Below, piece by piece: positions 1 through 37,010 of a DNA stretch of 64,000 bases. A program made the translations under genes and the position numbers. How positions within the stretch are numbered: the first letter of the stretch is position 1; each line of letters starts with the position of its first letter. Source of the DNA: Vulcanimicrobiota bacterium. GTDB taxonomy: Bacteria > Vulcanimicrobiota > Xenobia > Xenobiales > JADMJV01. The notes beneath the pieces are model-generated. The model saw nothing but the letters and a program-made list of their open reading frames with translations. It had not been told where the DNA came from and did no database searches. The stretch spans positions 27,678 to 91,677 of the forward strand of contig JAEXNA010000219.1 of NCBI GenBank assembly GCA_023447635.1, written 5' to 3'.

Positions 1-1357
1 GTTCGACCGCCTCTCCCTCGGGCCGAGGGTTGTTCAGCCAGAGCACGTAGCCCGGTTCGCCGATCTCGACGAAACGGTCACCGATGCGCAGGCTAAATTC
101 GACGTAGCCTTCCTTCTTCGGCTCGTTGAAGAAGTGCTCGGTGCTTTGCAGATAGCCGCCCATCGCGACCAACCATTCGCGCAGGGTAGTGACGTGCTTC
201 TCGAACTCGACCTTGCAGACTTCCGGGTCCTCTAGCTCTCCGTAACCGGGTTCGAGTTGGCACCAGCCCGACAGCTGTCCGTTGAGGGCTAGAATCTCGG
301 TGTGCCAACGCGGCACGAACTCGAACAGTTCGTTGCGCCGGTAGAAGATGTTGATCACCGTCTTGGCAGCCAGGGAATCCGGCATACGACGCAGCGACTC
401 GAGACAGACGTTGAGCAGCTTTTCCGAGGCCGAGATCGACTGGTCGTTGTCGATGTAAGGCAGCGCCGACTTGGGCAGGGTGCCCAGCTCTTCGCAGACT
501 TTGGCGGTAACGCCGGCAAAGTAGCGAATCAAAAACTCCAGAGCGTTGCGTAGCTCGAGGCAGCCGGCCACCGCATTTTCGGCCTGCATGGCCGAAGCCA
601 AACGGTCGAGGATGGCGGTCAGATAGCTGGGCGCCTTCTGGGGAACGAAAAAGTAGAGGGGCCGTTCATACAGCGAGACGGGTACATCGATCTCTTTGTC
701 CGGAATACAGAGAGGGCAGGACGAGACCTCGATGCGCTTCCCCGCCGTCAGCGTCTGGTTACCCAGTTGGACTTTCAGGCTCTGATGCCCGTCCTGGGTG
801 GTCCTTTCGGAAACGATGGCCGCGTGGGTGAAAAGGGCCGCCGAAGACTCCAGCCATTCCCGCAGGTAAGGGATGTAATGGCGAACCTCTTCCACGCACT
901 TCTTGCGGATCGGGATCTGGGCCGCCATGAACTTGTCCAGCGACATCGTGCCGCGGCGAGGCTTGCCACCGATCTCTAGCAGGCGAGCAAACTTCTTGGG
1001 AGCGCCCCCTTCAAAGAAGCAGTCGATCAGGGCGCGGACTTCTGGCAGGTCCGCGGGAGCGTCGTGCTGCAAGAACTCGACGCCCTTGCGGATCGCCTCG
1101 ACCGCCTCGGCGGTGTCGCCCCGATCGCGGTAGTTGAACTTCAGCTCGCCAAAGACCGACGCCACGCCCTCGACCAGGTCGGCCGTGTAGGCCGCCAGGA
1201 AAGCAAACGCCTTCTTCAGGACGCGGAGAGATGTTCCCGGAGCGTCCTGATCCAAAGAGTCGTTGAGCTCATCGAGAATATGCTCGAGATGTGAAGGGGA
1301 GCCTGGAGGCAAGCTTCGCACACCAAGCTCTTTTGCTGTTAATACAACCTCAGCCAT
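1..1357 (-). CDS. partial CDS (3' end lies beyond window start): paralog of the N-terminal ~450 aa of the 1023-aa protein at 4935..8006
   Basis: Absent from the ORF track because it runs off the window edge. My translation from ATG ~1357 (MAEVVLTAKELGVRSLPPGSPSHLEHILDELNDSLDQDAPGTSLRVLKKAFAFLAAYTADLVEGVASVFGELKF...WHTEILALNGQLSGWCQLEPGYGELEDPEVCK...) stays open to position 1. It aligns colinearly with residues 1-~450 of 4935..8006. DNA of ~1-1357 is visibly similar to ~6650-8006. Confidence 0.6.
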   Translation of the reverse strand, partial: MAEVVLTAKELGVRSLPPGSPSHLEHILDELNDSLDQDAPGTSLRVLKKAFAFLAAYTADLVEGVASVFGELKFNYRDRGDTAEAVEAIRKGVEFLQHDAPADLPEVRALIDCFFEGGAPKKFARLLEIGGKPRRGTMSLDKFMAAQIPIRKKCVEEVRHYIPYLREWLESSAALFTHAAIVSERTTQDGHQSLKVQLGNQTLTAGKRIEVSSCPLCIPDKEIDVPVSLYERPLYFFVPQKAPSYLTAILDRLASAMQAENAVAGCLELRNALEFLIRYFAGVTAKVCEELGTLPKSALPYIDNDQSISASEKLLNVCLESLRRMPDSLAAKTVINIFYRRNELFEFVPRWHTEILALNGQLSGWCQLEPGYGELEDPEVCKVEFEKHVTTLREWLVAMGGYLQSTEHFFNEPKKEGYVEFSLRIGDRFVEIGEPGYVLWLNNPRPEGEAVE

Positions 1358-1475
1358 CGTAAAAGGCACGCCACAGACGGCGTGGCTGACCTACCGCTTT
1401 CTCGATACCCCGGAAAAGAAACCCACTAAAGACGGCGGTTCTCCTCGCGCGGAGCGAATCCCCCTAAAATAAGGG

Positions 1476-2459
1476 CTAGTGCTGGAACTGTTGCTCGAAG
1501 GGAGAATAGGGATCGACTACCGGGGTATATCCCAGTCGTTGGCGGGCTTGCTCGATCGAGTAGGTGTGCGAGCACCCTAGTTGCAGGGCGGAAAAGCGAG
1601 TCAGCCGCGGCTCGCCGGAAAGGCGGAGAAGTCGGTAGAGCCACTGCAGTCCGGTTCCCAACAGCACGGCCTTACGAAGGCCCAGGGAAAGTCGAACTCC
1701 TGGCAGCCCTTTCCAGGCCAGCACCTGCTCCAACCAGTCCCATAACAGGACCGGTTGGCCCGAGGTGATGAAATAGGGGCGCCCCCAGATTTCGGCGTCC
1801 TCGCGCCGGTCGAGAGCGGCCAGATGAGCGGCCACCGTATCGGCGATATGGGTGACGTCGACCCGGTTGAGCCCGTCGCCCACCCGAATCAAACCCGAAC
1901 GTGACGCCGCCGCCTCGAACACTCGAGGGAGCAGATGGGGGTCTCCCGGTCCGTAGATAAGATGCGGGCGCAGCGCCAGCGTTTGCAAAGCCCCGTCTCC
2001 GTGAGCAGCCAGCACGGCTTTTTCCGACAAGATCTTCGTCATGCAGTACGGGTTCAGCGGCGCTCGAGAATAGGGGGTGGTCTCATCGATGTCGACTTCC
2101 GAGTGCCCTGAGAAGGTGACCGACGGGGACGAGGTGTGAACGAAATATCGAACCGTGTTCTGCCGTGCCGACGCAAGCAGATTCTCCGTGGCCACCACGT
2201 TGGCGTCGTGATAGTCGCTGTAGGCGCCCCAAATTCCGGCTTTCGCGGCGGTGTGAAAGATCAGGTCGACCCCTTCGCCCAGAGGCAGAACCGCCTCCCG
2301 GTCTCGCAAGTCGACCCGGGCCACGGTCACCCCCAGCGCTTCCAGGTCGGGGGCCGGGCGACGGGCCGTCGCGATCACCTCGTGGCCTCCCCTCTCGACC
2401 AGGGCCCTGGTCAGAGCCCCGCCCAGGAACCCCTGACCTCCGCTGACCAGGATCCTCAA
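1476..2459 (-). CDS. oleD: OleD-like NAD(P)H-dependent reductase (3-beta-HSD / NAD-dependent epimerase-dehydratase family)
   Basis: N-terminal Rossmann motif MRILVSGGQGFLGGAL, YxxxK catalytic motif (PYCMTKILSEK), ~327 aa. Its start overlaps the oleC-like stop by 4 nt (2456..2459). It follows oleB- and oleC-like genes, i.e. the canonical oleBCD order. Confidence 0.8.
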   Translation of the reverse strand: MRILVSGGQGFLGGALTRALVERGGHEVIATARRPAPDLEALGVTVARVDLRDREAVLPLGEGVDLIFHTAAKAGIWGAYSDYHDANVVATENLLASARQNTVRYFVHTSSPSVTFSGHSEVDIDETTPYSRAPLNPYCMTKILSEKAVLAAHGDGALQTLALRPHLIYGPGDPHLLPRVFEAAASRSGLIRVGDGLNRVDVTHIADTVAAHLAALDRREDAEIWGRPYFITSGQPVLLWDWLEQVLAWKGLPGVRLSLGLRKAVLLGTGLQWLYRLLRLSGEPRLTRFSALQLGCSHTYSIEQARQRLGYTPVVDPYSPFEQQFQH

Positions 2460-4039
2460 GACCGATGTCTCTTGGCCCAGACGCTGAGCTCTTCTCGGTG
2501 AATCTTGGCGTTATGACGCGGGTCCACCGGCAGAGCCGGGTGGAACATGACCTGGGTGATCCCCGCGTAGGTAGGCACCTGATGGAGTAGCGCCAGGCAC
2601 TCCCGCGCCAGAACTTCGTCCCGCGAGCGGGAGCCCGCTCGCTTTTCAACCACCAGGACAGGGCGTTCACGGCCGTCGACTAAGGCGACGCGTTCGACTT
2701 CGGGGTGGGGCAGGACCAGCGCCTCGCCGGGAAGCGGATAGATCGGCTCTAAACCGGGACGTATAGGCGGCACCGTATGACTTTTTCGGCCGACCAGCCA
2801 GAGGCGTCCGAGGTCATCAAAGTAGGCCAGGTCGCCCATCAGATGCCAGACCCCTTGCTCGCTGATCACTTTGCTTACCGCCGTCGCCTCGGGCTTGCGG
2901 AAATAAGCTTCGGTCACGACCGGTCCCCGCACCGCGACTTCTCCTACTGCCCCGGCCGGCAGCGGTTCGACGCTGCGGTTTTCCGGGTCGCCGCCCTCGC
3001 TGTCGACCACCCGGACCTCGTTGAGGTTCAGCGGTCGGCCCACGCAAAGCCCCGCTCCCTGGTGGTTGCGAGCGGTTTTGGTCGTCAGCAGTTCGGACGC
3101 CTCGATGTCCGTCACGGGAAGCGCCTCGGTGGCCCCGTACGGAGTGTGGATCTTGGCGTTAGGCGCAATCTGCTGCCAGCTTTCGATAAAATCGAACGGG
3201 ATCGGCGCCCCGAAAGTGATCAAACGACGAACCGTGGGAAGCGTGATCTTCCGACGCAGGCATTCGGCGGCCACGCGTTTCCAGATGGCCGGGGAGCCTT
3301 GCAGAGAGGTCACTCCGTGCTCATGGATCTGAGCCACCAGTTCGCCCGGGCGGCACTGCGCCGGTCGACTCGGGTCCAGTGCGGGGACGACTCCGGTGAC
3401 TCCGAGCGCGGCCGAGAAAAGTCCGAACAGAGGGAAGCCGGGCAGATCGATATCGTCGTCACGGAACTGATAGACGTCCCGCAAAACTTCCACCTGGCGA
3501 CAGAAAATGCCGTGGGTGTAAACCACCCCTTTGGCCGGTCCCGTGCTGCCCGAGGTAAAGAGCACCGCCGCCATACCCGAAGCCGACGCCTCGGCAACGG
3601 GAACCTGAGCGTCCAGGCTGCCCCGACGCAGGTCGGGCACTTCGGGGAAGTGCCCCCAGCAAGCCATCACCTTGACGGTACGAAACGGCTTCGGCGCCAG
3701 TCGGCGCAGAGCGAAAGCGCGAGGGATCCCGAGCAGCGCTTCGGGCTTGACCTCGTCCACTACCTTGAGAAATCGGCCCAGCCCCATACCAGGGTCGATC
3801 AGAATCGGCACCACTCCGATCTTGAAAAGGGCAAACACGCTGGCCACGAATTCTGCCGAGTTCCGCATCAACACCAAACAGGTGACGCCTGGCTCGAAGC
3901 CGATTTTGCGAAGGCGACATGCCTGCCGGTCGACCTCGCCCCAAAGCCGGGCGAAGGTGAAGCGTCGGGACTTATCGACCAGCGCCAGGCTGTTGGTTCG
4001 AGAACGCGCGGTCTGTTCGAAGATCTCGACGATATTCAA
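2456..4039 (-). CDS. oleC: OleC-like AMP-dependent synthetase/ligase (beta-lactone synthetase family)
   Basis: AMP-binding signature LFTSGSTGPAKGVVYTHG, 527 aa. 4-nt overlaps with the oleB-like gene upstream and the oleD-like gene downstream. Confidence 0.8.
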   Translation of the reverse strand: MNIVEIFEQTARSRTNSLALVDKSRRFTFARLWGEVDRQACRLRKIGFEPGVTCLVLMRNSAEFVASVFALFKIGVVPILIDPGMGLGRFLKVVDEVKPEALLGIPRAFALRRLAPKPFRTVKVMACWGHFPEVPDLRRGSLDAQVPVAEASASGMAAVLFTSGSTGPAKGVVYTHGIFCRQVEVLRDVYQFRDDDIDLPGFPLFGLFSAALGVTGVVPALDPSRPAQCRPGELVAQIHEHGVTSLQGSPAIWKRVAAECLRRKITLPTVRRLITFGAPIPFDFIESWQQIAPNAKIHTPYGATEALPVTDIEASELLTTKTARNHQGAGLCVGRPLNLNEVRVVDSEGGDPENRSVEPLPAGAVGEVAVRGPVVTEAYFRKPEATAVSKVISEQGVWHLMGDLAYFDDLGRLWLVGRKSHTVPPIRPGLEPIYPLPGEALVLPHPEVERVALVDGRERPVLVVEKRAGSRSRDEVLARECLALLHQVPTYAGITQVMFHPALPVDPRHNAKIHREELSVWAKRHRS

Positions 4040-4938
4040 GGAAAGGCGGCCTCGATCTCGGCGATCACGCGCTCCGGCGCTTCCTCCGTCAGCAGATGGC
4101 CGCAGTCAGGATAGCTGCGCCCCCGAGCGTGGGGGAAGAAGTCGAAGAAGCGGGTCATGAAGTGAGGGGTGAAGACCCAGTCCTTCTCGCCCCAGAGCAG
4201 CAGGGTGGGAAGCTCTTTGAGCTTCTCCAGGTTTTCCTCGACCCGGGTCAGTTCGGCATAGGAGGGGTGCGCTTCGTCGAGCGGGATGTCGGCCACGAAA
4301 CGATAGGTGGCGATGCGACTGGCCCATGAATCGTAAGGTAACAGGAAGCCTTGCTTGGCCGCCGGGGTGATCCGGTCGGGATCGGCCGCGCCCAGGGTCG
4401 GGGTCAGCCCCGCAAAAGCGTTGAAGCCGCGAATCAGCAGTTGGCCCACGCTGGCCGTCCGCGCGACCTTGAGCAACCAGGGCATCCGCTGGCTGCGGAA
4501 GGCCGCCGTGTTGCCGATCACCAGTTGAGAGAAACGCTCCGGATGGCGCCCAGCGACGCCCAGGCCGATGGCCCCGCCCCAATCGTGCACCATCAGACGG
4601 ATGTTCTTCAGGTCGAGATGGAGCACCAACTCTTCGAGATGGTCGATATGCTGCTCCAGGCGATACTCGAAGTCCTGAGGCTTATCCGAGAGACCACAGC
4701 CGATGTGGTCACAGGCGACGGTTCGCATGCGATCGGAAAAATGGGCCAGCGGCTTTCGGTAGTAAAACGACCAGGTCGGGTTGCCGTGCACGAAGAGAAA
4801 CGGCTGACCTTCTCCCTGGTCGACATAATGCATGGTGTGTCCCGAACGCAGCCGATAGAACTTGGACTCGAAGGGGTACTCTTCTCTGACGGCCGGAGGC
4901 AGAGTGGAGGCAGCGCCTCCCGGGTTAGTAACGGTCAC
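4036..4938 (-). CDS. oleB: OleB-like alpha/beta-hydrolase (haloalkane-dehalogenase-like)
   Basis: HGNPTWSFYYR motif (the haloalkane-dehalogenase/OleB HGNPT signature), nucleophile elbow VHDWGGAIG, 300 aa. Its GTG start overlaps the TGA of the upstream 1023-aa gene (GTGA). Confidence 0.8.
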   Translation of the reverse strand: MTVTNPGGAASTLPPAVREEYPFESKFYRLRSGHTMHYVDQGEGQPFLFVHGNPTWSFYYRKPLAHFSDRMRTVACDHIGCGLSDKPQDFEYRLEQHIDHLEELVLHLDLKNIRLMVHDWGGAIGLGVAGRHPERFSQLVIGNTAAFRSQRMPWLLKVARTASVGQLLIRGFNAFAGLTPTLGAADPDRITPAAKQGFLLPYDSWASRIATYRFVADIPLDEAHPSYAELTRVEENLEKLKELPTLLLWGEKDWVFTPHFMTRFFDFFPHARGRSYPDCGHLLTEEAPERVIAEIEAAFP

Positions 4939-7900
4939 GCGGAAACTCCCAGCAAAATGGTTGTAAAGAAGATGAACCAGGCCGCCACGGTGATGCTCTT
5001 GCGAACGGTGGGGTTAAGGAAAAGATCGTCGAGTTTTTGAGTCAACGACATCTCCTGATAATACGTCGCGCCGAAGTTCAGGCCAATAAAATATAGGTAC
5101 AGCCCGTAAAAGTCCATCCCTGGGAAGTCGGAAGACGAGGAAAAGAAGTTCGAGAGCACCGGGGTAAACATACAGACGCCAACAAAAATCGAGGGAAGGA
5201 TCATCATGACTACCCGCCGCTTTTCGAGCAGCTCCTGGGTGCTCGGCGGCATCCGACGATAGGCTCGCGCCACCAGAATCGGGACCAGGCCGGCTATCGC
5301 CAGATAGAGGTAGCCCACCAACTGGGAAGGCGCGACCACCCTGCCGTAAGCGTCGGGAGCGTCTTGAATGAGGCGTAGGGTTTCGTAGCCTCGCCCCAGC
5401 ATTTCGGTCAAGGCTCCGTTCATCCATGCCGAAGCAGCATGGAAAGCCGTGACCAGTGCCGACAGCAGCACCAGGTTGGGGATCAGCAGTTTGAACACCC
5501 CAAAACCTTTGCTGACCGGACGCGCCTTGGCCTGACCGATCATCTCATAAACCGAGATCGTGCGCTCTTCGTGCGCCGTTTTGAGCAAAATGAAGACTTC
5601 GTGGGTGTCGGGCAGTTCGTCGGTGTCGACCCAGTACGACAGCTGCACCTTGTTACCACGGAAGCGCGCCGGCTCGACCTCGATGCAGTCGTCGGTCGTG
5701 GTGGCCGCCCCCGACAGCGTGCCTCCTCCGGCGTTGGTCAGCACGATGTAGCCCGCCGCGCACGTTTTGCCCTTCGAGTTGGGCCGATCGCCGATCAGAT
5801 CGACGCGATGGACCAGGAAAGGACGCTCTTTCTCTCTTTCCTCCGGCGTCTTCTTACGGGTGGGAACGTCGACCAGGTCTTCATCGAAAGCGAGGTCGGG
5901 CGGGGGCAGTTCTGGCGCCTCGATGTCCGGCACCTGATCCGCTCCGGGGCGGATGTAAAAGGTGTAGTCCGGCGCCACCAGTTCCAGATAGATATCCGAG
6001 TATTCGATGACCAACTCGGTGCGCCCCGTCTTATCCGGCGGCTCTTCGTGGTGCTGGCACTCCCGGAAGAACGGTCCGGCCATGGCCATCCAGTCCTGCA
6101 AGGTCGGCATGAAGCGCTCGAGCTCTCGCTTGGCTCGTGCCGGGCTCGAGAGCACACCAACGCCTGCCACCAACGAGCAGAACTGAGCCAGATTCTGCAT
6201 CTTGCTCGACGGATCCGCATCGAGGGCTAGCAGTCGCGCGTGCGCGCCCGTCGGCTTCTCTTCGTGGGAGAGCTCTTCTTCGTAGTAGAAGACGTTGCGG
6301 ACGGCGTGCCCTAACTTCTCTTCCCCCTCACGTCCGATCGAGCGAAGCGCCAGGATCAGCAGCTTCTCGCAGTCGTGGATGGACAGCGAGGATTCGGCCA
6401 GCTTCTCGGCCTCGGGCGGCAGAGTACCCAAACGGCGGAACGCCGCCGCGGCCACACCCGCAAAATATCGGGTCAAGTAGTCCAGCGAATCGCGCAGCGA
6501 GGCGCACGACTCGACCGGGTCGCCCAGCCGCAGATAGAGGTCCATGCGGGTGAGAATTCGCTCTAAAACCTTGGGGCAGTGGGGCGGAATCTCCAGCGAT
6601 TCGCGGATCAGCGGCTTAGCCGCGACAACTTCCCCTTCGCTCTCCTCGATGACCCCCTCACCTTCCGGGCGAGGGTTGTTCAGCCAGAGCAAGTATCCGG
6701 GCTCGCCTACCTCGACGAAACGGTCGCCGATGCGTAGGGAGAACTCGACACTGCCGTCCGGTCGCGGCTCGTTGAAGAAGTGTTCGGTGCTTTGCAGGTA
6801 GCCGCCCAGCGCGACCAGCCACTCTCGCAGAGTGGGGACGTGCTTTTCGAACTCGAGTTTGCAGACCTCGGGGTCTTCGAGCTCACCGTAGCCAGGCTCG
6901 AGTTGGCACCAGCCGGCAAGCTGACCGTGCAGGGCTAGAATCTGGGTGTGCCAGCGAGGGACGAAGGCAAAGTGCTCGTTACGCCGGTAGAAGATACCGG
7001 TCAGCGTCTTGGCGGCCAGCGAGTCGGGCATCCGTCGCAAAGCCTCGAGGCTATAGTTCAATAGCGCTTCCGACGACGACACCGAGGCGCTGTTATCGAG
7101 CAGCGGTACGGCCGCTCGAGGCAAGGTGTTCAGGTCCTCGCACACCTTGGAGGCGACGCCCGCGAAGTAGCGGATAAGGAACTCCAGGGCGTTGCGAAGT
7201 TCAAGACAGCCAGCCACCGCGTCCTTGGCCCTCATGGCTTCGTCCAGCCGGTCCAAAATGGTGGAAAGAAACTTCGGCGCCTTCTGAGGGACAAAGAAGT
7301 AGACCGGACGCTCGTAGAGCGAAAGCGGGACGTCGATCTCCTTCTCCGGGATACAGAGCGGGCAGGACGACACCTCGATCCGCTTGCCCGCCACGATCGT
7401 CTGCTTGCCCAGCTCGACCCGGATCGACTGATGCCCTTGCAGCGAAGTCCGCTCCGAGATGATGCGAGCGGCAGAAAACAGCGGAGTCAGGTTCTCCAGC
7501 CACTCGCGCAAGTAAGGCGTGTAGTGGCGAACTTCTTGAACGCACTTCTTACGCACCGGGATCGGCGCTTCCAGAAACCGGTCCAACGCCATCGTGCCAC
7601 GTCGGGGCTTGCCGCCGATCTCGAGCAGCCTGGCGAACTTCTTCGGAGTCCCCGCGTCATAGAAGCAGTCGACCAGAGCGCGAACTTCGGGCAGTTCTCC
7701 CGGCGCGTCGGCCTGCAGGAAAGCCAACCCCCGACGTAAGGTATCGACCGTCTCTTCGATATCGCCGCGCTTCTTGAACTTGAACTTCAGCTCGCCAAAA
7801 ACCGAGGCGACGCCTTCCACCAGGTCGGCCAGGTAGCAAGAGATAAACCCCAAAGTGCGCTTGAGCACCCGCAGCGAGGTGCCGGGAGCATCCAGGTCCA

Positions 7901-8006
7901 GCGATTCGTTGAGCTCGTCGAGCAGATGCTCGAGATGTGCCGGGGCGCCCGGATAAAGCGTGGGGACGCCCAGCTCCCTGGCTGTCAGAGCCTCCTCTAC
8001 CGCCAC
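4935..8006 (-). CDS. large hypothetical protein: internally duplicated N-terminal modules, a beta-rich middle segment, and a C-terminal ~5-TM membrane anchor; no family recognised
   Basis: 1023-aa ORF with SD-like GAGAGGA ~12 nt upstream of the ATG. Residues ~230-300 (LSTILDRLDEAMRAKDAVAGCLELRNALEFLIRYFAGVASKV) recur at ~490-560 (CPKVLERILTRMDLYLRLGDPVESCASLRDSLDYLTRYFAGVAAAAF). Residues ~395-450 recur at ~640-700. C-terminal hydrophobic helices include FKLLIPNLVLLSALVTAF, LVGYLYLAIAGLVPILV, VVMMILPSIFVGVCMF, YGLYLYFIGLNFG, ITVAAWFIFFTTILLGV. Translationally coupled to oleB. Confidence 0.7.
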   Translation of the reverse strand: MAVEEALTARELGVPTLYPGAPAHLEHLLDELNESLDLDAPGTSLRVLKRTLGFISCYLADLVEGVASVFGELKFKFKKRGDIEETVDTLRRGLAFLQADAPGELPEVRALVDCFYDAGTPKKFARLLEIGGKPRRGTMALDRFLEAPIPVRKKCVQEVRHYTPYLREWLENLTPLFSAARIISERTSLQGHQSIRVELGKQTIVAGKRIEVSSCPLCIPEKEIDVPLSLYERPVYFFVPQKAPKFLSTILDRLDEAMRAKDAVAGCLELRNALEFLIRYFAGVASKVCEDLNTLPRAAVPLLDNSASVSSSEALLNYSLEALRRMPDSLAAKTLTGIFYRRNEHFAFVPRWHTQILALHGQLAGWCQLEPGYGELEDPEVCKLEFEKHVPTLREWLVALGGYLQSTEHFFNEPRPDGSVEFSLRIGDRFVEVGEPGYLLWLNNPRPEGEGVIEESEGEVVAAKPLIRESLEIPPHCPKVLERILTRMDLYLRLGDPVESCASLRDSLDYLTRYFAGVAAAAFRRLGTLPPEAEKLAESSLSIHDCEKLLILALRSIGREGEEKLGHAVRNVFYYEEELSHEEKPTGAHARLLALDADPSSKMQNLAQFCSLVAGVGVLSSPARAKRELERFMPTLQDWMAMAGPFFRECQHHEEPPDKTGRTELVIEYSDIYLELVAPDYTFYIRPGADQVPDIEAPELPPPDLAFDEDLVDVPTRKKTPEEREKERPFLVHRVDLIGDRPNSKGKTCAAGYIVLTNAGGGTLSGAATTTDDCIEVEPARFRGNKVQLSYWVDTDELPDTHEVFILLKTAHEERTISVYEMIGQAKARPVSKGFGVFKLLIPNLVLLSALVTAFHAASAWMNGALTEMLGRGYETLRLIQDAPDAYGRVVAPSQLVGYLYLAIAGLVPILVARAYRRMPPSTQELLEKRRVVMMILPSIFVGVCMFTPVLSNFFSSSSDFPGMDFYGLYLYFIGLNFGATYYQEMSLTQKLDDLFLNPTVRKSITVAAWFIFFTTILLGVSA

Positions 8007-8263: not shown

Positions 8264-11200
8264 CTAGCGCGGTACCAGGCGAAGCCCAAAATCGGTCATC
8301 TCGTAGATCGGGATCCCGTCGACGCGCAGGAACCCGGCGCCCAGCAGGATCGGTTCCGCGCCGCCTTCACGGCGAGTGATCGAGACGTCCACCGTCACCT
8401 TTTTGTTCTTCGGAATCACCTGTCCGCGGTAGGCCCAGGTGTGGGGCAAACCGACCGCAACCGGCTCGAAGCGGTGGGTGTCCAGACACTCCGGCCAGTA
8501 CTGCAGAGCGGCGTATTTCAGCAGCTGCAAAAACGCCTCCAAACCTAGCGATCCGGGCCATACGGGGTCCTCGAAGAAGTGAGCTTTGAAGAACCATTCG
8601 TCCGGGTCGACGATCTTGCTGCCCTGCACGTAGCCCAGCCCCTTGAGGCCGCTTTCGGGCAAGAACAGGTCGACCTGATCCATCATCAAGAGCGCCTTGG
8701 CCGGCATACACGCGCTGGGTCCGGCGTCAAGCTGAGGGTCTTCGGGCGAGAGCGGATGGAACAGGGTGAAGGTGGTGGGACGGGCCGAAGCGGTCTCGGC
8801 CTGGCTGGGGGTATAGGTCCGACGAGCCGCATCGCGGACCCCGAGCTGGTTGGCCAGAGCGGCCGCCGAGAAGAAGCCGAAGTAGGTCGTACCCTCATAG
8901 TACAACTCATCGCCGACCCACATCTGCATAGCGAAGTTTTCGATGATCATGCCGCCCGCTTCGGACACTTCGGTCATCTTGACGCGCATCCGAACGGTGC
9001 CCACGCCGGGGAAGAACTCCTTGTGCAGGGTAGCCGTTCCGCCCAGGTTGCGGAACTTGACGTCGGTCTCCGAGCGCAGCGCCGAACCCAGGTAGCCGGC
9101 CAGCCAGCCGCAGGGTTGGAGGGCGGCTTCGAGCAGAATGCAGTAAGCCATGGAGTCCTGGCGGTTGGCCGCGAAGTACCACTCGTCGGGCGGCACGTCG
9201 TAGTGCGCCTCGATCCAGTCGCCGGCCTGCAGCACGAACTTGGGCTGGTTGACTTCGACCACCCGGTCCATGAACTGGTAGGGCGGCCCGGGCAGGCGAG
9301 CGATCTTGCGCTCATTGTCGAACACCGTGTACTCGGGACCGAAGGCCAGCGAGGGGCGGCCGTTCGAGTACTGCATGATGCTCTCTTTGTCGTAGAGCAC
9401 CTCGTAGGTGGGGGCCGGACTCTCGACCGCCGGAGAGGCAGCCGCGCGGCCGGCCCAGATGCTGTCGACGTCGTGCTGGGTAAGACCGGTCAACTGCATC
9501 GACATGTCGACAAAGCGCACGATCGGCTTGCCGTCGCCAAACATCAGCGCATCGGCCAGCACGTAGGGCTCCGGCCCGAAGCCGATCTCCTTGATGTCGA
9601 CCTGGTAGAGCACCTTCTTGGTCTTCACGGTGACCGGACCACGGCACTTCAACGCGGCCGGCACTTCGAGTTTCGGCTCGAAGGCCACCCGGGACTCTTC
9701 CGAGAGCCAGCCCATTCGCGCCAGCAAGAAGCGCAGGGTATGAGCGCAGCACTCATACATCAGGGTGCCGGGCATCACCATGTCGTCGGTGAAGTGGCAG
9801 GTCAGGAACCAGTCGTCGGGATGGATGTCGGCCTCGGCCTCGATCTGGCCCAGCCCGAAGCGGCCGCCGTCGGCCTTCAGCGAAGTGACGCGGTCGAACA
9901 GCTTCATCCGCCCCTCGGGCAGACCGTAGGGGCGCTGCAGCGGCAGACCGGCGAACCCATCGCCGAAGCAGCCCACCAGGTCGCGGCGACGGAAGGCGGC
10001 GACCTGAGCGTCCGAGTAGGACTCGACGGCGCCTAACCCGCGAGGGAACGGCGCCTTGGGAGCCCAACCGGCAGGGGCCTTACCGGGAACCGGCTCCTTA
10101 TCGCGCTTGGTCAGCACGATACCACCGGAAGCTTCGATCTCGGCGTAGGTGTGGAAGCCCGCGCAGCCTTTGCGCATGGTGATCAGCGGCTGACCGTCGA
10201 TGGTGCCGTCGAACTCGAAGAAGAACAGATAGACTTCGCCCTGCTGGACGAACCGGTTGATGCGAATGTCGTACACGATCACCTCACCGGGTTGGGGCAG
10301 CCCGCGATGGAACTGTACGGTGGCGTCGAGCAGACGGTAGGCCCGGTCGGGAGAGGTCACCAGGTCGATGCCCAGGTAGGAGGAGAGGAAAAGGTCGGCT
10401 TGTCCGGCCTCGACCGAGATGCAGACGGGAGCGCGGTCGTGGTCCAGGTACCAGGCCTCGGGGAAAACGTCGTGCTCGGTGATCAGCCGTCCGCCGGTCA
10501 TCGAGCCCGGCTCGCCTTCCACGCCCATCATCCGGTCGCACAGCATCAGCGGCTCGTCAGGCAGGCGTACCCGAACGGAACGCTTGTCCACGGAAGCGAA
10601 CTGAGGGCCCAGAACTTTCTCGACCGAACCGATGGCGAACTCCATACAGGCGGCGCGGTTCAGCCACGCTTGACCGTCGCGGTGGCGTTCGCCCCGCATG
10701 ATCGGGTTGGGAGAGTTCGGGTCGATTTTGGCCCAGGGGCTCTCCTCCTCGACCTGACGCAGGTGCACCGGCGCCAGAGGAAGGACCGTCGCCTGAGCCG
10801 CCGAGTCGCCCCCGGGCAGCGCGCCGCCCAGCAGGCTCTCGATGCGCTGACGAGTCTGCTCCATCAGTTCCAGGTAGGCCTCGTGAGCCAGCGAGGTCTG
10901 GCGGGTGCTCTCTACGATAGAGGCAGCCAGACGAGCGGCCGGGTCCCCGGCGTAGTCGGGGTGCAGGCCGATGACCGGGCTCAACTCGTGTCCGGGCGTG
11001 GTGGGGGGCGTCATAATCTGTCCATCCTTTGTCAGTGTCTTGGGTCGAGAAGCTTGAGGTCCGCTCCACACCAGCGCCCTCTTCGGGGCCCCGGTGGGGT
11101 GGGAGGGAGGCGGGGTGGGAGCCGGAGCGGCTACGGTGGAGGGGGCAGCGGTCGGCGTGGGAGCGCTCCGGGCCACCACGGGAGTGGGCGCAGGCCGGCT

Positions 11201-14200
11201 CACCGCGGGAACGGGCGCCGGAGCGGGGGTCGCTGAGCGGGCCGGCGCCGGAACCTGAGCCGCCACGGGAGCAACCCCAGGGGTAGCGGGCGCAGGAGCG
11301 GCGGGTCGCGCCGGAGCGGGAGCGGGGGAAGCTGCGGCAGGGGCCGGGGGAGCTTTGCGGGTTACCGGGCTGGCCAGTCGGCGGGCCAGGCCCGAACCCG
11401 AGCCCACCGCGATGCTGGGACGGCTGCCCCGACGCGCACCCTCACGGGCCGCCGGATAGAGCGCCCCGAGGTCGACCTTGCCGCCGTGCACGTAGGTCGA
11501 GGCCAGCAGGCGCAGCAGCGCCATCGCCTCGCCCGTCTTGGGCAGCGAGAGCGAGCGGCTCCAGAACTCTTCGCCCTGCAGGATCGAGCGAATCATGCGA
11601 GCGCACGAGCCGCCCGGACCGATCTCGATGAAGTGGCGCACGCCGTCGCGGTGAGCTGCCTGGACCAGCGCCGGGAAGGAGAAGCCGTGCAGGGCGTTTT
11701 CGGTGATCGACTCGGCCGCGCTTTCCCGATCGGGAACGTAAGCCCGCTGGCGAAATCCGTTGTAGAAACGCACCCCTTCGGGCGGCGTGGTGGGCAAGCG
11801 GTGCAGTTCGCGATAGCTTTCGGCCACCGGGTGCATCAGCGCGCAGTGCACGGTGGGCACCCCGTCGAGGGCGAACAGGTCGCATTTCAGGCGGTCCGCC
11901 ACCTCGTCGAGCGCCTCGGCGGCTCCGCCGATCACGCACTCCTCGGGCGTGTTGACGATGAGCAGGAAGACATCGCCCCGCTCCCGTCCCGCGATCGCCT
12001 CGCGCACCTCGGCTTCGGGCTTGTTGACCACCGCTACCCGCCAGTCGAACGGCTGGTCGGCGGCGAGGCCGAGCACCTCGCGAGCGGTCTGATAGCCGGC
12101 GCGCAGTTGGCTCAGGAAGAGCGGCGAAGCCATGGTCTTTTCGAACATCTCGTCGCGAGCCTGCCAGGCGCCCATCGAGAACAGCGCGGCCGTCTCGCCC
12201 AAGGAATAACCGATGGCGGCCTGGGGCGGCTCCAGGAACAGCCCGAGCACTCGTGAGGCCAGGATGGCAAAGGTAACTTGACTGAAGATCGGGGCCAGCG
12301 GGTCGTTGTCGATGGCGGCCAGCGCCTCGGCCTCCCACCCGTCTCCCCTCTCCGAGGCAAACGGCTGAGTCAACCAGGGGGTGAAATGCTGGTACGACGT
12401 GGCGGCCTCGGAGGAGACCTGAGCGGCCACCTCGGGGAACAGCACGGCCAGTTCGCGGCCCATGCCCAGATAGTGATTGCCCGAGCCGGGAAACACCCAG
12501 GCGGTTTCGCCCGGGGTCGGCGCGGCCTGGAAGAACACTCCGGCCTGCCCATCTAAAGCGGGCGTCTCGCCCCGAGCGCAGCGCTCGAGCAGGTCCAGTC
12601 CGGCCAGAAGTTCGCTTGCGTTACGGGCGACCACGGCGCCGCGAGGACCGGCCACGTTGGCCTCCTGCGAGGTCGACCAGTCGCGTGCCAGCGCCTCGAA
12701 GGGGCCGGGCTCCCCCGCCGCCGAGCGCAGAGCGCCCAGGGAGGCGATGGGCAGCAGGAACAGCTGAGCCGGCAGGGCTCGCGAGCGAACTCCGGCTTCC
12801 GCCAGGCCTCCCCCCTTACCGCCTTCGCGCAGCAGTACGGCGTGGCTGTCGCGACCGGACGAATGGCCCACGCTGACCGCGCGACGCGGCCCCTGACGGT
12901 CGTCGTGCCACCAGAACGAAGCCTCGCGAGGCAGATAGGTACCCACTGGCGTGGGCAGCGGCTGTTGCAGTCCGACCACGCCCGGCAGCACCTTGCTATC
13001 GAGCGCGGTGGCTGCCGAGATCACCGAGAGCAGTCCGCCCAGGGCGCCGCCCTGGCCAAAGCTGCCCACCTGAGTTCCGAAGGCGGTCGGCCGGGCTCCC
13101 CCGGCGGGAGCGGGGAAATGGTGGCCGTAATGCTTCAAGAAACGAGCGTCGTCTTCGGGGTCGGCCCAGCTGAGCACGTCGACAAAGCCGGGAGCCTCGC
13201 CGTCCAGCTTCCTCGAGAGCGCTTCGAGATTGCGGATCAGCGCCCGCGGCCCCGAAGTGGCGAACACCTCATCGAGCACGGCCAGGATGCGATCGCCGTC
13301 GGCCTCGGCCGCGGCCCGGCTCTTGAGCACCAGCGCCACCGCCCCCTCGGCCACCGTAGCGCCCTGACCCTGAGGGTCGAAGGGTCGGGCCACGCCGCCC
13401 CTGGCCAACCGTTTGCCTCGGTCCTCGGCCCAGACACAGCGCGGGTCGCCGGCCAGGTCGATGGCGCCGATCAGGCAGCTGTCCATCTCTCCGTTCTGGA
13501 TGGCGCGCATTCCGATCTCCAGGGCGCGCACTCCGGACAGCTCTCCGCAAGAGATAGCGTAGGACGGCCCACCCAGAGAGAATTCGCGAGCGGCTCGAGA
13601 GGCCGCGATGCTGCCCAGAGCGCCCAGGGTACGAGTGCTGTCCAGCGGACGCGAGAGGGTCGCGCGCAGCCGCTCCCGTGCGGCATCGTCCAACTCTTCG
13701 GGGCGGACGCCCAGTCGAGAAAGCATGCGCGGCAGGGCCCAGCGCAGGTGGAAGTTGGTCGTCTCCATATCCAGGCTGATGCCGATCAGGGCGCCGCTGC
13801 GACGGCAGCGCTCCTTGGGGCCCAGCGTGCTGCGCTCGGTGGCCTGGTGGGCCGCCGCCAGCAGCAGCGACTGCTGCAGCAAGATGTCGGGCAGGTCCAT
13901 CGGAGGCACCCGGAACTCGCCTGCCTCGACGTGAAGCGCTTCGAGGTAGCTGCCCCAGACCTCTTCTAGCGAGGCCATCGAACCTTCCAGCCGGTCGGGC
14001 CAGCGGTTCTCGGGACGCGGCGTGGCGGCGCTACGTCCCAGCAGGCGGTCGACCAGGAAACGCTCGAAGTCGTGCTCCTGCCCGATCTTGACCGCCACCG
14101 AAGTGATCACCACCTCGTCCACCGGCGCGGGCTGCCCCACGGTCTCGGGCCCAAACCCCGGCTCTTCGACCAGAACGTGTCCGTTGATGCCGCCGAAGCC

Positions 14201-15466
14201 GAAAGCGGAAACGCCCGCCCGCAGCGGGTCGCTCGACTGCCAGGCCTCGGGCTTAGTGAGCACGCGGAACGGGGTGTCCTGGAAATCGATCCCCTTCGAG
14301 GGGCTCTCGAAGTTGTTCATCGGGGGCAAGGTGCGAGTCTCGATCGCCTTGATCACCTTGATCAGGCCGGCCACGCCCGCGCCGGTCAGAAGGTGACCAA
14401 TCTGCGATTTCACCGAACCCAGTACGGTGCCGGGAGCGTCAGAGCGCTCTTCTTGCCAGAACTTGCGCAGCGAGTTGAACTCGATCTTATCGCCCTTGGG
14501 CGTGCCGGTACCGTGGCACTCGACCAGACCCACCTGGTCGGCCCTCCAACCGGCCTGACGGTAGGCCTCGTTCAGAGCGCGAAGTTGGCCCTCGGTGTCG
14601 GGTGCCAGCAAGCTGCCCCCGACATCGTTGGAAAGGCCGATACCGCGAATCACAGCGTAGACTCGGTCGCCCTGAGCCAGCGCGTCCGGCAGGCGTTTGA
14701 GCAGCAAGAAGCCCGCTCCCTCTCCCACCACCAGGCCGTCGCCTTTGTGGTCGAAGGGCGAACAGCGGCCGCTCGGACTCAAAGCGCCCAGAGCGGTGAA
14801 GCCCGCCTGGGTGTAAAGGTTGTCGGCGCGATTGGCGCCGCCCGCCAGCACCGCGTCGGCACGTCCGTCGGTCAGGGCGTCACAGGCTAGCTTCACCGAA
14901 TACAGCGAGGAGGCGCAAGCCGCATCCAGGGTCAAGGTGAAGCCGCCCAGCCCCAGGGCGTCAGCCACCACTTCAGCCGGACGCCCGGTGACCTGACGGT
15001 CCAACGGTCGAGACAGCGGTTCCGGCGTTTCCGGGCGAGGACTCAGGCTCTGGGCCAGGGTGTCCAGGAAAAACTCCTCGGACAGGCGCGACGACTCCAT
15101 CGTGGGCAGTGCGATCGAAGCCAGGATAGTCGCCACGCGAGAGCGGTCCTCGAGCTTGCCCCGGGCGTCATCGAGGGTCATCTCGGCGGCCACCAGGGAC
15201 AGACGACTGAGATCGTCCAAGCCTTCACCGCTCACGCTGCGCGGCTGCGGAATCGCATCCATCAAACAGGCGCGCAGCGAACCGACGCCGTCAGCGCCCG
15301 TGCCGTTCTTGGCGAACCAGTTCGGGTCGGCGGGCCAGCGCTCGGCCGGCACCTCGCGAGAGGCGTCGTAGCCGCTCAGGATGTTGTTCCAGAAAGCCGG
15401 CACGTCGGGGGCCGAAGGAAATACTCCGCCCATCCCCACGACAGCGATGGCATAAGGTCTTTTCAC
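8264..15466 (-). CDS. pfaC: PUFA-synthase-type PKS subunit, KS-CLF-AT-(Pro/Ala linker)-DH-DH (PfaB/PfaC-like fusion)
   Basis: KS active-site DAACASSLYSVKLACDAL and ECHGTGTPKGD. A second KS-like (CLF) domain follows. AT motif GYSLGETAALFSMGAW. Long Pro/Ala-rich linker. Two FabA-like hot-dog DH domains (HFTDDMVMPGTLMYE; FFEDPVWPGSLGLEAF). GTG start with AAGGA 8 nt upstream. Confidence 0.9.
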   Translation of the reverse strand: MKRPYAIAVVGMGGVFPSAPDVPAFWNNILSGYDASREVPAERWPADPNWFAKNGTGADGVGSLRACLMDAIPQPRSVSGEGLDDLSRLSLVAAEMTLDDARGKLEDRSRVATILASIALPTMESSRLSEEFFLDTLAQSLSPRPETPEPLSRPLDRQVTGRPAEVVADALGLGGFTLTLDAACASSLYSVKLACDALTDGRADAVLAGGANRADNLYTQAGFTALGALSPSGRCSPFDHKGDGLVVGEGAGFLLLKRLPDALAQGDRVYAVIRGIGLSNDVGGSLLAPDTEGQLRALNEAYRQAGWRADQVGLVECHGTGTPKGDKIEFNSLRKFWQEERSDAPGTVLGSVKSQIGHLLTGAGVAGLIKVIKAIETRTLPPMNNFESPSKGIDFQDTPFRVLTKPEAWQSSDPLRAGVSAFGFGGINGHVLVEEPGFGPETVGQPAPVDEVVITSVAVKIGQEHDFERFLVDRLLGRSAATPRPENRWPDRLEGSMASLEEVWGSYLEALHVEAGEFRVPPMDLPDILLQQSLLLAAAHQATERSTLGPKERCRRSGALIGISLDMETTNFHLRWALPRMLSRLGVRPEELDDAARERLRATLSRPLDSTRTLGALGSIAASRAAREFSLGGPSYAISCGELSGVRALEIGMRAIQNGEMDSCLIGAIDLAGDPRCVWAEDRGKRLARGGVARPFDPQGQGATVAEGAVALVLKSRAAAEADGDRILAVLDEVFATSGPRALIRNLEALSRKLDGEAPGFVDVLSWADPEDDARFLKHYGHHFPAPAGGARPTAFGTQVGSFGQGGALGGLLSVISAATALDSKVLPGVVGLQQPLPTPVGTYLPREASFWWHDDRQGPRRAVSVGHSSGRDSHAVLLREGGKGGGLAEAGVRSRALPAQLFLLPIASLGALRSAAGEPGPFEALARDWSTSQEANVAGPRGAVVARNASELLAGLDLLERCARGETPALDGQAGVFFQAAPTPGETAWVFPGSGNHYLGMGRELAVLFPEVAAQVSSEAATSYQHFTPWLTQPFASERGDGWEAEALAAIDNDPLAPIFSQVTFAILASRVLGLFLEPPQAAIGYSLGETAALFSMGAWQARDEMFEKTMASPLFLSQLRAGYQTAREVLGLAADQPFDWRVAVVNKPEAEVREAIAGRERGDVFLLIVNTPEECVIGGAAEALDEVADRLKCDLFALDGVPTVHCALMHPVAESYRELHRLPTTPPEGVRFYNGFRQRAYVPDRESAAESITENALHGFSFPALVQAAHRDGVRHFIEIGPGGSCARMIRSILQGEEFWSRSLSLPKTGEAMALLRLLASTYVHGGKVDLGALYPAAREGARRGSRPSIAVGSGSGLARRLASPVTRKAPPAPAAASPAPAPARPAAPAPATPGVAPVAAQVPAPARSATPAPAPVPAVSRPAPTPVVARSAPTPTAAPSTVAAPAPTPPPSHPTGAPKRALVWSGPQASRPKTLTKDGQIMTPPTTPGHELSPVIGLHPDYAGDPAARLAASIVESTRQTSLAHEAYLELMEQTRQRIESLLGGALPGGDSAAQATVLPLAPVHLRQVEEESPWAKIDPNSPNPIMRGERHRDGQAWLNRAACMEFAIGSVEKVLGPQFASVDKRSVRVRLPDEPLMLCDRMMGVEGEPGSMTGGRLITEHDVFPEAWYLDHDRAPVCISVEAGQADLFLSSYLGIDLVTSPDRAYRLLDATVQFHRGLPQPGEVIVYDIRINRFVQQGEVYLFFFEFDGTIDGQPLITMRKGCAGFHTYAEIEASGGIVLTKRDKEPVPGKAPAGWAPKAPFPRGLGAVESYSDAQVAAFRRRDLVGCFGDGFAGLPLQRPYGLPEGRMKLFDRVTSLKADGGRFGLGQIEAEADIHPDDWFLTCHFTDDMVMPGTLMYECCAHTLRFLLARMGWLSEESRVAFEPKLEVPAALKCRGPVTVKTKKVLYQVDIKEIGFGPEPYVLADALMFGDGKPIVRFVDMSMQLTGLTQHDVDSIWAGRAAASPAVESPAPTYEVLYDKESIMQYSNGRPSLAFGPEYTVFDNERKIARLPGPPYQFMDRVVEVNQPKFVLQAGDWIEAHYDVPPDEWYFAANRQDSMAYCILLEAALQPCGWLAGYLGSALRSETDVKFRNLGGTATLHKEFFPGVGTVRMRVKMTEVSEAGGMIIENFAMQMWVGDELYYEGTTYFGFFSAAALANQLGVRDAARRTYTPSQAETASARPTTFTLFHPLSPEDPQLDAGPSACMPAKALLMMDQVDLFLPESGLKGLGYVQGSKIVDPDEWFFKAHFFEDPVWPGSLGLEAFLQLLKYAALQYWPECLDTHRFEPVAVGLPHTWAYRGQVIPKNKKVTVDVSITRREGGAEPILLGAGFLRVDGIPIYEMTDFGLRLVPR

Positions 15467-23092: not shown

Positions 23093-24727
23093 TTACGAGA
23101 AGTAGGGCGCGAGTTCGGCGTCCGTTTTGGGGCGGAACTCCTGCAGCTCGTGACTCAACGGCACGCCCTGCTGACGCAAGGCGTGGACCCGGCCCAGATA
23201 AGCGGCGCCGGCGAGAATATTACGGGCGACCACGCCCGCTTGGCGAGCCTTCGGCTCGGCCAGATAGCTGTCGCCGACCCACTGGTTGAAGGCGCCCATG
23301 GCGGGACCGCACCAAACCTGGTAGTCGACCTTGCGGTCGGCGATACCCGAGTTGGCCCAGCCCGAGGCGCGGCCGAGGTAGGAGCGGAAGACCAGTGCCA
23401 TCTTGTGTTTGGGGTCGGCGGCGGCGCGCTGGTTCTGGCGCGGGTCGCGACCTTCGAAGAATTTGTGGGTGTCGGCCCAGACTTCGTCGAGGGTCTGACG
23501 GAAGAAGGTCTTCTCCAGCACGGCGCGCTCGGAGGCGGGCAGCTCTTCCATAGAGCCGTAGTCGCGGTAAAGCTGATACAGCTTCTTGGCGCGCACGGGG
23601 AACATAGTGCCCCACTTCAGCACCTGGACCTGAACGCCCATTTCGAACATATCGGCGGCAGGCGCCATCGCCATGTCGGCTTGTCCGGCTTTGCACAGCA
23701 TCTCGCGCACGATATCAGAGCTTCCCGACTCGAGGCAGGACTGGTTGACGCTTCCGGTCAGAATGTAAGAAGCGCCCATCGCAAAGGCGGCACAGGCCGA
23801 GGCCGGGGTCGAGATACCGCCGGCAGCGCCAACCCGCAGCACCACGCCGCGGTCGCCGTACAGCTTCTGCTTCTCGTCGCGCAGAGCGATCATGGTAGGA
23901 AGCAGAGCCAGAGCCGGGCGGTTATCGGTATGTCCGCCGGAATCGGCTTCGGCCGTCAGGTCTTCGACCACCGGCATCAAGGCGGCAAGTTCCGCCTGTT
24001 CGGGGGTCAGGTCGCCGCGCTGCACCAGTTCGCGCAGCATCTTCTCGGGCGGCGGAGCGAAAAACTTCTCGGCCACCTCGACGCGAGACACCTTGCCCAG
24101 CACCTGCTGGCGCATCACGATCTCGCCGTTGTCGTTGCGCGAGATGCCGTGGAAACGGTACTTCAAGAGCGGGAGCGTCAGACCCAGGTAGGCCGAGGCG
24201 CTGACCCGCTTGACCCCTTTGCGAAGGTAGAGATCGACGATCCCCTCTTCCAGGTCGGGCTCGTTGGGCGAGTGGATCAAGTTCGAGCCGAACGGCTTGT
24301 CGCCCAGGCTCGCTTGCAGGCGGTCGATCGATTTCTCGACCACGTGCAGCGGAAGTCCGGCGGCGCCGAACACGCCCAGCGTGTTGGCCTCGGCGGCGGC
24401 CTGGACCAGTTCGACCGAGGTGATGCCGTTGGCCATCGCCCCGACCACATAGGAGTAGTCGACTCCGTGGGCCTTCCGGAACGAGGCGTCGCCCAACCCC
24501 GCGGGGGTCAGTGAAGGCAAGAAGCCGGCAAAGGTCCAGCCGTCTCCATCGCCTGCGCCCAGTTCGCCCTTGTCCACAGGGGCCAGCGCGATCTCATCGC
24601 CCTTGCGCACCACGAAATAGGATTCGCCCAGAGACTGCAGCCCCTGTCCTAAACCCTCTTGTCCTTGTAGCAGAGCGCTCGTGTCGCCCCTCCAACCCAA
24701 CTTCGCCGTCATACTCAAAACGTCCAT
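23093..24727 (-). CDS. pfaD: PfaD-like FMN-dependent trans-acting enoyl reductase (2-nitropropane-dioxygenase-like)
   Basis: PfaD hallmarks: ...LGWRGD... near the N-terminus, VGAMANGITSVELVQAAAEANTLGVFGAAGL, and a TIM-barrel ER core. The track ORF extends to 24817, but the first ~30 aa look arbitrary. ATG at ~24727 (MDVLSMTAKLGW) or ~24712 gives the usual ~540-aa length. Confidence 0.85.
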   Translation of the reverse strand: MDVLSMTAKLGWRGDTSALLQGQEGLGQGLQSLGESYFVVRKGDEIALAPVDKGELGAGDGDGWTFAGFLPSLTPAGLGDASFRKAHGVDYSYVVGAMANGITSVELVQAAAEANTLGVFGAAGLPLHVVEKSIDRLQASLGDKPFGSNLIHSPNEPDLEEGIVDLYLRKGVKRVSASAYLGLTLPLLKYRFHGISRNDNGEIVMRQQVLGKVSRVEVAEKFFAPPPEKMLRELVQRGDLTPEQAELAALMPVVEDLTAEADSGGHTDNRPALALLPTMIALRDEKQKLYGDRGVVLRVGAAGGISTPASACAAFAMGASYILTGSVNQSCLESGSSDIVREMLCKAGQADMAMAPAADMFEMGVQVQVLKWGTMFPVRAKKLYQLYRDYGSMEELPASERAVLEKTFFRQTLDEVWADTHKFFEGRDPRQNQRAAADPKHKMALVFRSYLGRASGWANSGIADRKVDYQVWCGPAMGAFNQWVGDSYLAEPKARQAGVVARNILAGAAYLGRVHALRQQGVPLSHELQEFRPKTDAELAPYFS

Positions 24728-24817
24728 TCCACCGCCACGATTCCTAGCGACAGACCTCGCGAAGCGGCATGAAGCCGCGCCCAGGTCCATGCCGTTCCCT
24801 TTTGGGGAGGTCGGCAC

Positions 24818-28121: not shown

Positions 28122-28194
28122 TCCTCCAACAGGCCTTCCCTCCCCTCCCCCTGAAGTGGAGGGGAATCTCCCCAGAGACGAAAGGCCGCCCGCC

Positions 28195-30921: not shown

Positions 30922-30928
30922 GCGACCC

Positions 30929-31858: not shown

Positions 31859-31861
31859 CTC

Positions 31862-31900
31862 CGAGTCTTCAGAATACCGGGAATTAGGGCTTCCCGTTGG
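31862..31900. terminator. possible bidirectional hairpin in the 46-bp convergent gap
   Basis: TAGGGC-ttcccgttggg-GCCCTA inverted repeat between convergent genes 30929..31858 (+) and 31905..32795 (-). No U-tract. Confidence 0.2.
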
Positions 31901-31904
31901 GGCC

Positions 31905-37004: not shown

Positions 37005-37010
37005 ACCAAC

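Follow-up and report, generated by a model that had tools for sequence, protein, structure and literature searches.

A probable pfa–ole hydrocarbon locus with a putatively relocated oleA and an uncharacterised membrane-anchored protein in an uncultured Xenobia-like lineage

The minus strand of a 64-kb stretch from a Vulcanimicrobiota bacterium (contig JAEXNA010000219.1; hereafter the window) carries an unbroken string of eight genes, pfaD-pfaA-pfaBC-X-oleB-oleC-oleD-X' (window 1–24817), in which the genes of a Pfa-type polyunsaturated fatty acid (PUFA) synthase run into genes for olefin synthesis, and an uncharacterised protein, X, occupies the usual slot of the thiolase gene oleA. This is probably a Geobacter-like pfa–ole locus for polyunsaturated hydrocarbons whose oleA has moved to a stand-alone position elsewhere in the genome. 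The labels of related sequences place the host lineage among uncultured Eremiobacterota/Vulcanimicrobiota (Xenobia-like).

On the model of the established pathways of Shewanella, Xanthomonas and Geobacter, the Pfa-type iterative synthase would make polyunsaturated acyl chains, two of which would be condensed head-to-head into a 2-alkyl-3-oxo acid by a stand-alone OleA thiolase encoded elsewhere. OleD would then reduce this acid, OleC would use ATP to close the reduced acid into a β-lactone, and OleB would decarboxylate the lactone to a cis-olefin. By analogy, the product and chemistry are likely the known ones, the product belonging to the class of polyunsaturated very-long-chain olefins.

The pfa–ole gene string

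The members of the string, all on the minus strand, are as follows.

23093..24817, minus strand: pfaD-like enoyl reductase, 574 aa; first gene of the string
15527..23047, minus strand: pfaA-like PUFA synthase subunit, 2506 aa, with ketosynthase (KS), acyltransferase (AT) and six acyl carrier protein (ACP) domains followed by ketoreductase (KR) and dehydratase (DH) domains, in the order KS-AT-6xACP-KR-DH (Pfam, NCBIfam)
8264..15466, minus strand: pfaBC-fusion-like subunit, 2400 aa, KS-CLF-(AT)-FabA-type dehydratases, where CLF is chain-length factor (Pfam, NCBIfam)
4935..8006, minus strand: X, uncharacterised membrane-anchored protein, 1023 aa, in the usual slot of oleA
4036..4938, minus strand: oleB-like β-lactone decarboxylase candidate, 300 aa, GTG start (Pfam, motifs)
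2456..4039, minus strand: oleC-like β-lactone synthetase candidate, 527 aa, TTG start (PRK09274, AMP-binding fold)
1476..2459, minus strand: oleD-like 2-alkyl-3-oxoalkanoate reductase candidate, 327 aa, TTG start (NF042422/NF042423)
1..1357 (ATG at 1357), minus strand: X', paralog of X, running off the window start with the first 452 of its 1020 residues inside the window

The preliminary description of this stretch had reported overlaps of exactly 4 nt at three junctions, and the sequence confirmed them at X/oleB, oleB/oleC and oleC/oleD. Their type was only partly as described (GTGA/ATGA): the X/oleB junction reads GTGA, whereas the other two read TTGA rather than ATGA. The start codons of oleB, oleC and oleD are therefore GTG, TTG and TTG, not ATG. 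For oleD, the TTG start cannot be dispensed with: residue 7 is already the first of the Rossmann motif GGQGFLGG, and the alignment to the OleD models starts at their position 1. Gaps of 257 nt between pfaC and X and of 118 nt between oleD and X' contained no convincing promoter, terminator or Rfam element; promoter and terminator scans stayed at background level, and an Rfam scan of window 1–26000 returned nothing.

The identification of the three genes after X as oleB, oleC and oleD was upheld by best matches, motifs and the identity of their products (OleB 55%, OleC 47%, OleD 48%) to the proteins of a canonical cluster in a Candidatus Xenobia metagenome-assembled genome (MAG; locus L015). 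OleB combines an α/β-hydrolase fold (Pfam Abhydrolase_1, 100 bits), the motifs HGNPT and HDWGG, the latter with the Asp nucleophile, a C-terminal His and a gene position directly upstream of oleC. No dedicated OleB model matched in the Pfam and NCBIfam searches, and the top NCBIfam matches were haloalkane dehalogenase models, under their cutoffs. Judged by these features, OleB is a haloalkane-dehalogenase-like α/β-hydrolase and a candidate β-lactone decarboxylase. OleC, encoded between oleB and oleD, scored 510.6 bits on the fatty acid CoA ligase family model PRK09274, passing its cutoff of 478, and 179 bits on the AMP-binding domain PF00501; PRK09274 was also the top match for OleC of L015 and of a second locus, L012. 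On the olefin β-lactone synthetase models NF045786 and NF045785, OleC reached 398 and 371 bits, short of the cutoffs of 900 and 850. The top two matches of OleD were NF042422 (300 bits) and NF042423 (281 bits), both under the cutoff of 580, with residues 1–316 aligned to positions 1–316 of these NCBIfam OleD models. The protein also carries GGQGFLGG, the Rossmann motif of extended short-chain dehydrogenases/reductases, and YCMTK (YxxxK), and it matched 3Beta_HSD and Epimerase in Pfam.

Profile thresholds had been proposed in the preliminary description as a test of these assignments. OleC and OleD do miss the equivalog cutoffs, but OleC (514/464 bits) and OleD (388/349 bits) of the canonical same-phylum cluster L015 miss them as well. 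The failed thresholds are therefore an effect of calibration and not evidence against the assignment. The equivalog cutoffs are uninformative for OleD of this lineage; the models were built around Xanthomonas and Shewanella. On the strength of the 47–55% identity to L015 and the scores calibrated in this way, we regard the three genes as homologs of OleB, OleC and OleD.

The adjoining genes encode a PUFA-type polyketide synthase, as had been described. PfaD scored 598.8 bits on TIGR02814 pfaD_fam (cutoff 449.25), with NMO and FabD_helical_ins in Pfam, and PfaA scored 1996.8 bits on TIGR02813 omega_3_PfaA (cutoff 1010) and contains six tandem PP-binding (ACP) stretches. In the third subunit, Pfam identified two ketoacyl-synt stretches, a weak Acyl_transf_1 and three FabA stretches, and NCBIfam identified FabA/PRK05174-like dehydratase regions. 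Two subunits above their cutoffs, the tandem ACPs and the FabA-type dehydratases together mark a Pfa synthase, and the third subunit matches the Type I pfaBC fusion of Shulse and Allen (PMC3098273). Neither a pfaE-type phosphopantetheinyl transferase (PPTase) nor a hot-dog pfaT-like thioesterase was seen in the window; other lineages have both linked to pfa or ole genes, and in Shewanella/Photobacterium the pfaT thioesterase gene is linked to the ole genes (PMC6463001).

Absence of oleA from the locus and its presence in relatives

The window contains no oleA, as the preliminary description had stated, and domain, motif and profile searches were all empty. Among its about 30 major open reading frames (ORFs), none has a Pfam thiolase or β-ketoacyl-ACP synthase III (KAS III) domain, and the OleA pattern EPxx[AS]x(14,18)DxxNACL (PMC7158056) and a looser version of it had no match in the window in six frames. 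A custom hidden Markov model (HMM) built from 22 OleA sequences gave no match at E ≤ 10 among six-frame ORFs of ≥ 60 aa in the window and the 10 kb past X'. For the sequence beyond the window start, we used a metagenome contig (L001) that is identical to the window and reaches 10 kb beyond oleD. An oleA just beyond X', which the preliminary description had allowed for, was not present in the 10 kb past X' on this contig; the genes there are a convergent 786-aa unknown gene, two small genes, a PilZ-related gene, coaBC and lexA. Thus, oleA is absent from about 74 kb around the locus, and an OleA thiolase of the PRK09258 type, with Cys-His-Asn plus Glu, does not adjoin oleB as it does in oleABCD clusters; X is found there instead.

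Relatives of the locus point to an oleA elsewhere. A search with OleC returned a core clade with 64–94% identity to the OleC of the window, followed by a group at 50–53% to which P0117 belongs; this protein comes from a MAG with the label Vulcanimicrobiota bacterium (GCA_050183855.1). The locus of P0117 (L013, contig JBFXAX010000012.1) reads pfaC-X-oleB-oleC-oleD with 4-nt overlaps, a single X and no X', and no oleA lies within 10 kb of it. A query with the L015 OleA, from the canonical Xenobia cluster, led to an OleA of 337 aa (P0307) on another contig of the same assembly, JBFXAX010000006.1, where it stands alone among unrelated genes. P0117 and P0307 share an organism label, and both list a longest contig of 3,947,236 bp. 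P0307 scored 408 bits on the OleA-type model PRK09258 (cutoff 285) and retains the signature EP..AS-x16-DVGNACLGF as well as the HQ and GN positions. One genome with pfaC-X-oleBCD therefore holds complementary halves, oleBCD without oleA and oleA without oleBCD.

This OleA has many counterparts. A further 25 or so OleA cluster representatives, 71–82% identical to P0307, have retained Glu, Cys, His and Asn at the signature positions, and the gene stood alone in all 10 examined loci of the group (L017–L023, L028, L029 and L102). A metagenome scan with the OleA alignment gave at least four loci of the stand-alone group, none of which, among the matches listed, lay on a known X-bearing contig. Most metagenome OleAs at 45–56% identity, again among the matches listed, have oleB directly after them, and the canonical order oleA-oleB-oleC-oleD occurs both in L015, whose OleA carries EPAMAS-x16-DVGNACL, and in an Eremiobacterota MAG (L016). 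One OleC and one OleA cluster member, for example, were each found on 38 Logan/ENA contigs; such circumstantial pairings lean towards the same conclusion as the related MAG but are no proof. Of the two explanations offered in the preliminary description, the one placing oleA elsewhere in the genome thus gained support from the unlinked OleA of the related MAG, and the other, a route without OleA, is disfavoured. Judged from the sequences of these relatives, the window's own genome probably has an oleA.

Several candidates for an OleA of this lineage were rejected. P0263 had been considered as coming from the samples of the window (ERZ27269162/ERZ24927784); it derives from ERZ22666005 and ERZ22666147. 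The pairing of P0020 with P0297 through a shared value of 14,001 bp was a coincidence, and L017 carries no X. A 365-aa KAS III gene near oleBC in L012 is FabH-like of the PRK07515 type (582 bits) with the active-site motif NVACSS; against the OleA-type model it reached only 42.7 bits, and against the custom OleA HMM E=5e-4.

L012 (Logan DRR378781_3145) also differs in gene arrangement. At L012:18800-22041, about 6 kb from oleC and on the opposite strand, its oleD forms a pair, overlapping by 4 nt, with a two-domain phospholipase-D/cardiolipin-synthase-like gene; this pair is convergent with the PRK07515-type KAS III gene. More distant OleA homologs (45–58% identity to P0307) without oleB within several kb downstream were observed in the metagenome contigs L026, L031, L046, L047, L050, L058, L074 and L098. 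A scan of genome contigs with exact 8-residue OleC patterns found only three Blastocatellia AMP-ligase loci at 31–32% identity (L008–L010); this search revealed no close relative in that collection.

Protein X and the competing readings

X fits its first description as an unrecognised 1023-aa membrane-anchored protein in the oleA slot: it had no Pfam, NCBIfam, PHROG or PDB sequence-profile match, and its C-terminus is formed by hydrophobic helices. Relatives are scarce, with 53 among 5.8 billion proteins in a word-indexed search and 130 cluster representatives among 1.84 billion in an exhaustive profile search. The AlphaFold model (mean pLDDT, the per-residue confidence score, 82.9) consists of three tandem helical-plus-small-beta repeats (about 1–240, 245–445 and 479–690), an Ig-like beta-sandwich (731–818) and four to five hydrophobic transmembrane (TM) helices within 833–1023. 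Repeats 2 and 3 are 32% identical (E 4e-34), and repeats 1 and 3 are 22% identical. Neither a thiolase nor another enzyme fold nor a lipid-related domain was found in this model, and the sequence has no signal peptide, so that the bulk of X should be cytoplasmic. As modelled, X and X' should be non-enzymatic proteins, cytoplasmic at the N-terminus and embedded in the membrane at the C-terminus.

The gene after oleD was confirmed as a paralog of X. X' is 1020 aa at full length and 73% identical to X over 1019 residues, and its whole gene lies at L001:11103-14165. X also lies between pfaC and oleB in the divergent L012 and L013, where the order pfaC-X-oleB and the 4-nt X/oleB overlap are kept although OleC is only 50–53% identical to that of the window. 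The second copy is missing from both, and one X-family member was listed on each of the large contigs carrying P0021, P0022, P0023 and P0026; X' is a feature of a subclade. The tree is ambiguous as to whether X or X' is orthologous to the lone copy in relatives. Where related contigs have two copies, one belongs to group A and the other to group B, whereas both window copies group with A, and X' is nearer to P0002 (80%) than X is (77%). This pattern may reflect gene conversion or independent duplication. The family alignment also contains invariant or near-invariant cysteines, among them, in repeat 1, C155 and the CPLC motif (C215, C218) and, in repeat 2, C367 and C382; residues 155, 215 and 218 correspond to window positions of about 7544, 7364 and 7355. 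These cysteines could form a metal site or disulfides.

Several points weigh against a pfa–ole olefin locus with a relocated oleA and X as part of its machinery. OleC and OleD fall under the NCBIfam equivalog cutoffs and score slightly lower than their counterparts in canonical clusters, no oleA has been tied to the window's own genome, and the product is established for no member of this lineage. In addition, X paralogs at 29–58% identity (L003, L005, L006 and L011) have T2SSF, N_methyl pseudopilin, PilZ and GGDEF/EAL genes as neighbours, and their surroundings contain neither ole nor pfa genes. The first two of these points, together with the emptiness of the surrounding 74 kb and the junction of oleBCD with the pfa string, which is kept in relatives, could also be read as signs of a genome devoid of OleA, in which OleBCD act on a β-keto or β-hydroxy acid taken straight from the Pfa synthase. 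The lower scores would then mean that specificity could have shifted, and the product would be a monosubstituted β-lactone or a terminal or otherwise unusual olefin. However, the relative with this architecture has retained in its genome an OleA that is intact and complete in its motifs, with no oleBCD nearby, and the whole stand-alone OleA group is comparable in size to the X-bearing clade. OleB, OleC and OleD are, moreover, about half identical to the proteins of a canonical same-phylum oleABCD cluster. We therefore consider such an OleA-free route improbable and retain the reading in which oleA has been relocated.

The role of X is less clear-cut. Since its overlap with oleB is conserved, X might be made together with OleBCD and tether or organise the Ole machinery, and perhaps that of Pfa, at the membrane into which the hydrocarbon passes; the suggestion is weak, and we make it tentatively. 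With the same reserve, X (and X' in this subclade) may be a new component devoted to Pfa-linked olefin synthesis: coupled to OleB in translation and anchored in the membrane, it would act as an adaptor through which OleBCD, and perhaps also the Pfa synthase and the stand-alone OleA, dock at the cytoplasmic membrane, and the hydrophobic product would thereby enter the bilayer. The paralogs in contexts without ole or pfa genes indicate that the X family is not intrinsically an Ole component. Their neighbours suggest that its ancestral role may have been tied to type IV pilus/type II secretion-like machinery or cyclic diguanylate (c-di-GMP) signalling. X and X' could accordingly be bystanders, lineage-specific membrane proteins with envelope, pilus or signalling roles, for example, that rearrangements happened to place on either side of oleBCD and that have no part in hydrocarbon synthesis; the proposed reading would otherwise be unchanged. 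This possibility deserves to be taken seriously, although we do not expect it to hold. It is consistent with the lack of an enzyme fold or lipid-related domain in X, with the absence of X' from L012 and L013, and with the recurrence of X modules in other proteins: the repeat module is found N-terminally in NACHT/AAA_16-TPR proteins, and in one relative the sandwich-plus-TM module comes after a protein-kinase match that is weak and below threshold. The persistence of pfaC-X-oleB and its 4-nt overlap across such divergent OleCs would, however, be unusual for an unrelated inserted gene. Least credible is an enzymatic replacement of OleA by X, as a new condensing or acyl-transfer enzyme. X does occupy the exact oleA slot of canonical clusters and of Geobacter (PMC4882568), overlaps oleB just as oleA does in L015, and has Cys, His and Arg positions that are invariant across its family. 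Nevertheless, the confident model without a thiolase or other catalytic fold, the true OleA kept in the related genome and the paralogs in non-lipid contexts make this reading highly implausible.

In one of the paralog loci (L006), a 1655-aa X-family member follows T2SSF after 30 nt.

Relation to known systems and other genes of the window

The closest known parallel is Geobacter bemidjiensis Bem, whose tandem pfaD-A-B-C-oleA-B-C-D-pfaE genes make hentriacontanonaene, C31:9 (PMC4882568). In both, pfaD, pfaA and pfaB/C are followed directly by ole genes on one strand, the Type I pfaBC arrangement is present (PMC3098273), and the inferred product class is a polyunsaturated very-long-chain olefin. 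The window, from another phylum, differs in having X for oleA and X' for pfaE, with no oleA or PPTase gene. Shulse and Allen reported frequent linkage of ole genes to Type I pfa clusters and noted that the ole genes may lie elsewhere in the genome (PMC3098273), and according to Allemann et al. the acyl substrates of OleA come from the Pfa synthase (PMC6463001). In Shewanella/Photobacterium, the Pfa synthase likewise feeds the Ole enzymes via OleA, and the pfa and ole operons of P. profundum are adjacent (PMC6463001); these genomes keep oleABCD together with a linked pfaT, whereas in the window oleA is split off and the hot-dog thioesterase was not seen. The order oleB-oleC-oleD and the overlapping junctions are shared with canonical oleABCD (Xanthomonas campestris, Shewanella oneidensis, L015 and L016), from which the window differs in the non-adjacent oleA, the joining of oleBCD to the pfa string and the missed OleC/OleD equivalog cutoffs. 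The oleACD β-lactone clusters of the lipstatin and nocardiolactone types (PMC7064751) also encode OleC and OleD homologs, but they lack oleB and keep oleA, whereas the window keeps oleB and lacks an adjacent oleA. Because oleB is retained, the end product would be expected to be an olefin rather than a β-lactone.

The Ole pathway and its coupling to Pfa are already well described, and the enzymology of this locus is not new. This appears to be the first description of pfa–ole hydrocarbon genes in uncultured Eremiobacterota/Xenobia, for which a literature search found none. Since oleA can be split from oleBCD, surveys that look only around oleA will miss such loci. In one study, OleA matches without oleBCD within 5 kb were discarded (PMC7158056), and in another 920 OleA-like sequences were reduced to the 251 with ole neighbours (PMC7064751). 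Unlinked oleA may be commoner than surveys centred on clustered genes imply. X is a concrete candidate for the way in which the soluble Ole machinery passes its very hydrophobic products to the membrane and is the only element here that could repay further work; if it is a bystander, the locus is an ordinary rearranged pfa–ole cluster.

The remainder of the window contains two further groups of genes. In window 28156–44704, large ORFs without a Pfam match (921, 309, 993, 720, 969 and 666 aa) surround a T2SSF gene (35685–37004) and a methyltransferase gene (31905–32795); none of these large ORFs is related to X by tblastn. The T2SSF ORF and the 993-aa ORF overlap by 89 nt on opposite strands, and at least one of the two starts is therefore probably miscalled. 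Window 60747–63495 encodes a MoxR ATPase (PF20030, 269 bits) of the type found in MoxR-vWA-beta-propeller ternary systems and, after it, contains a 554-aa ORF without a Pfam match; this pair may belong to such a system.

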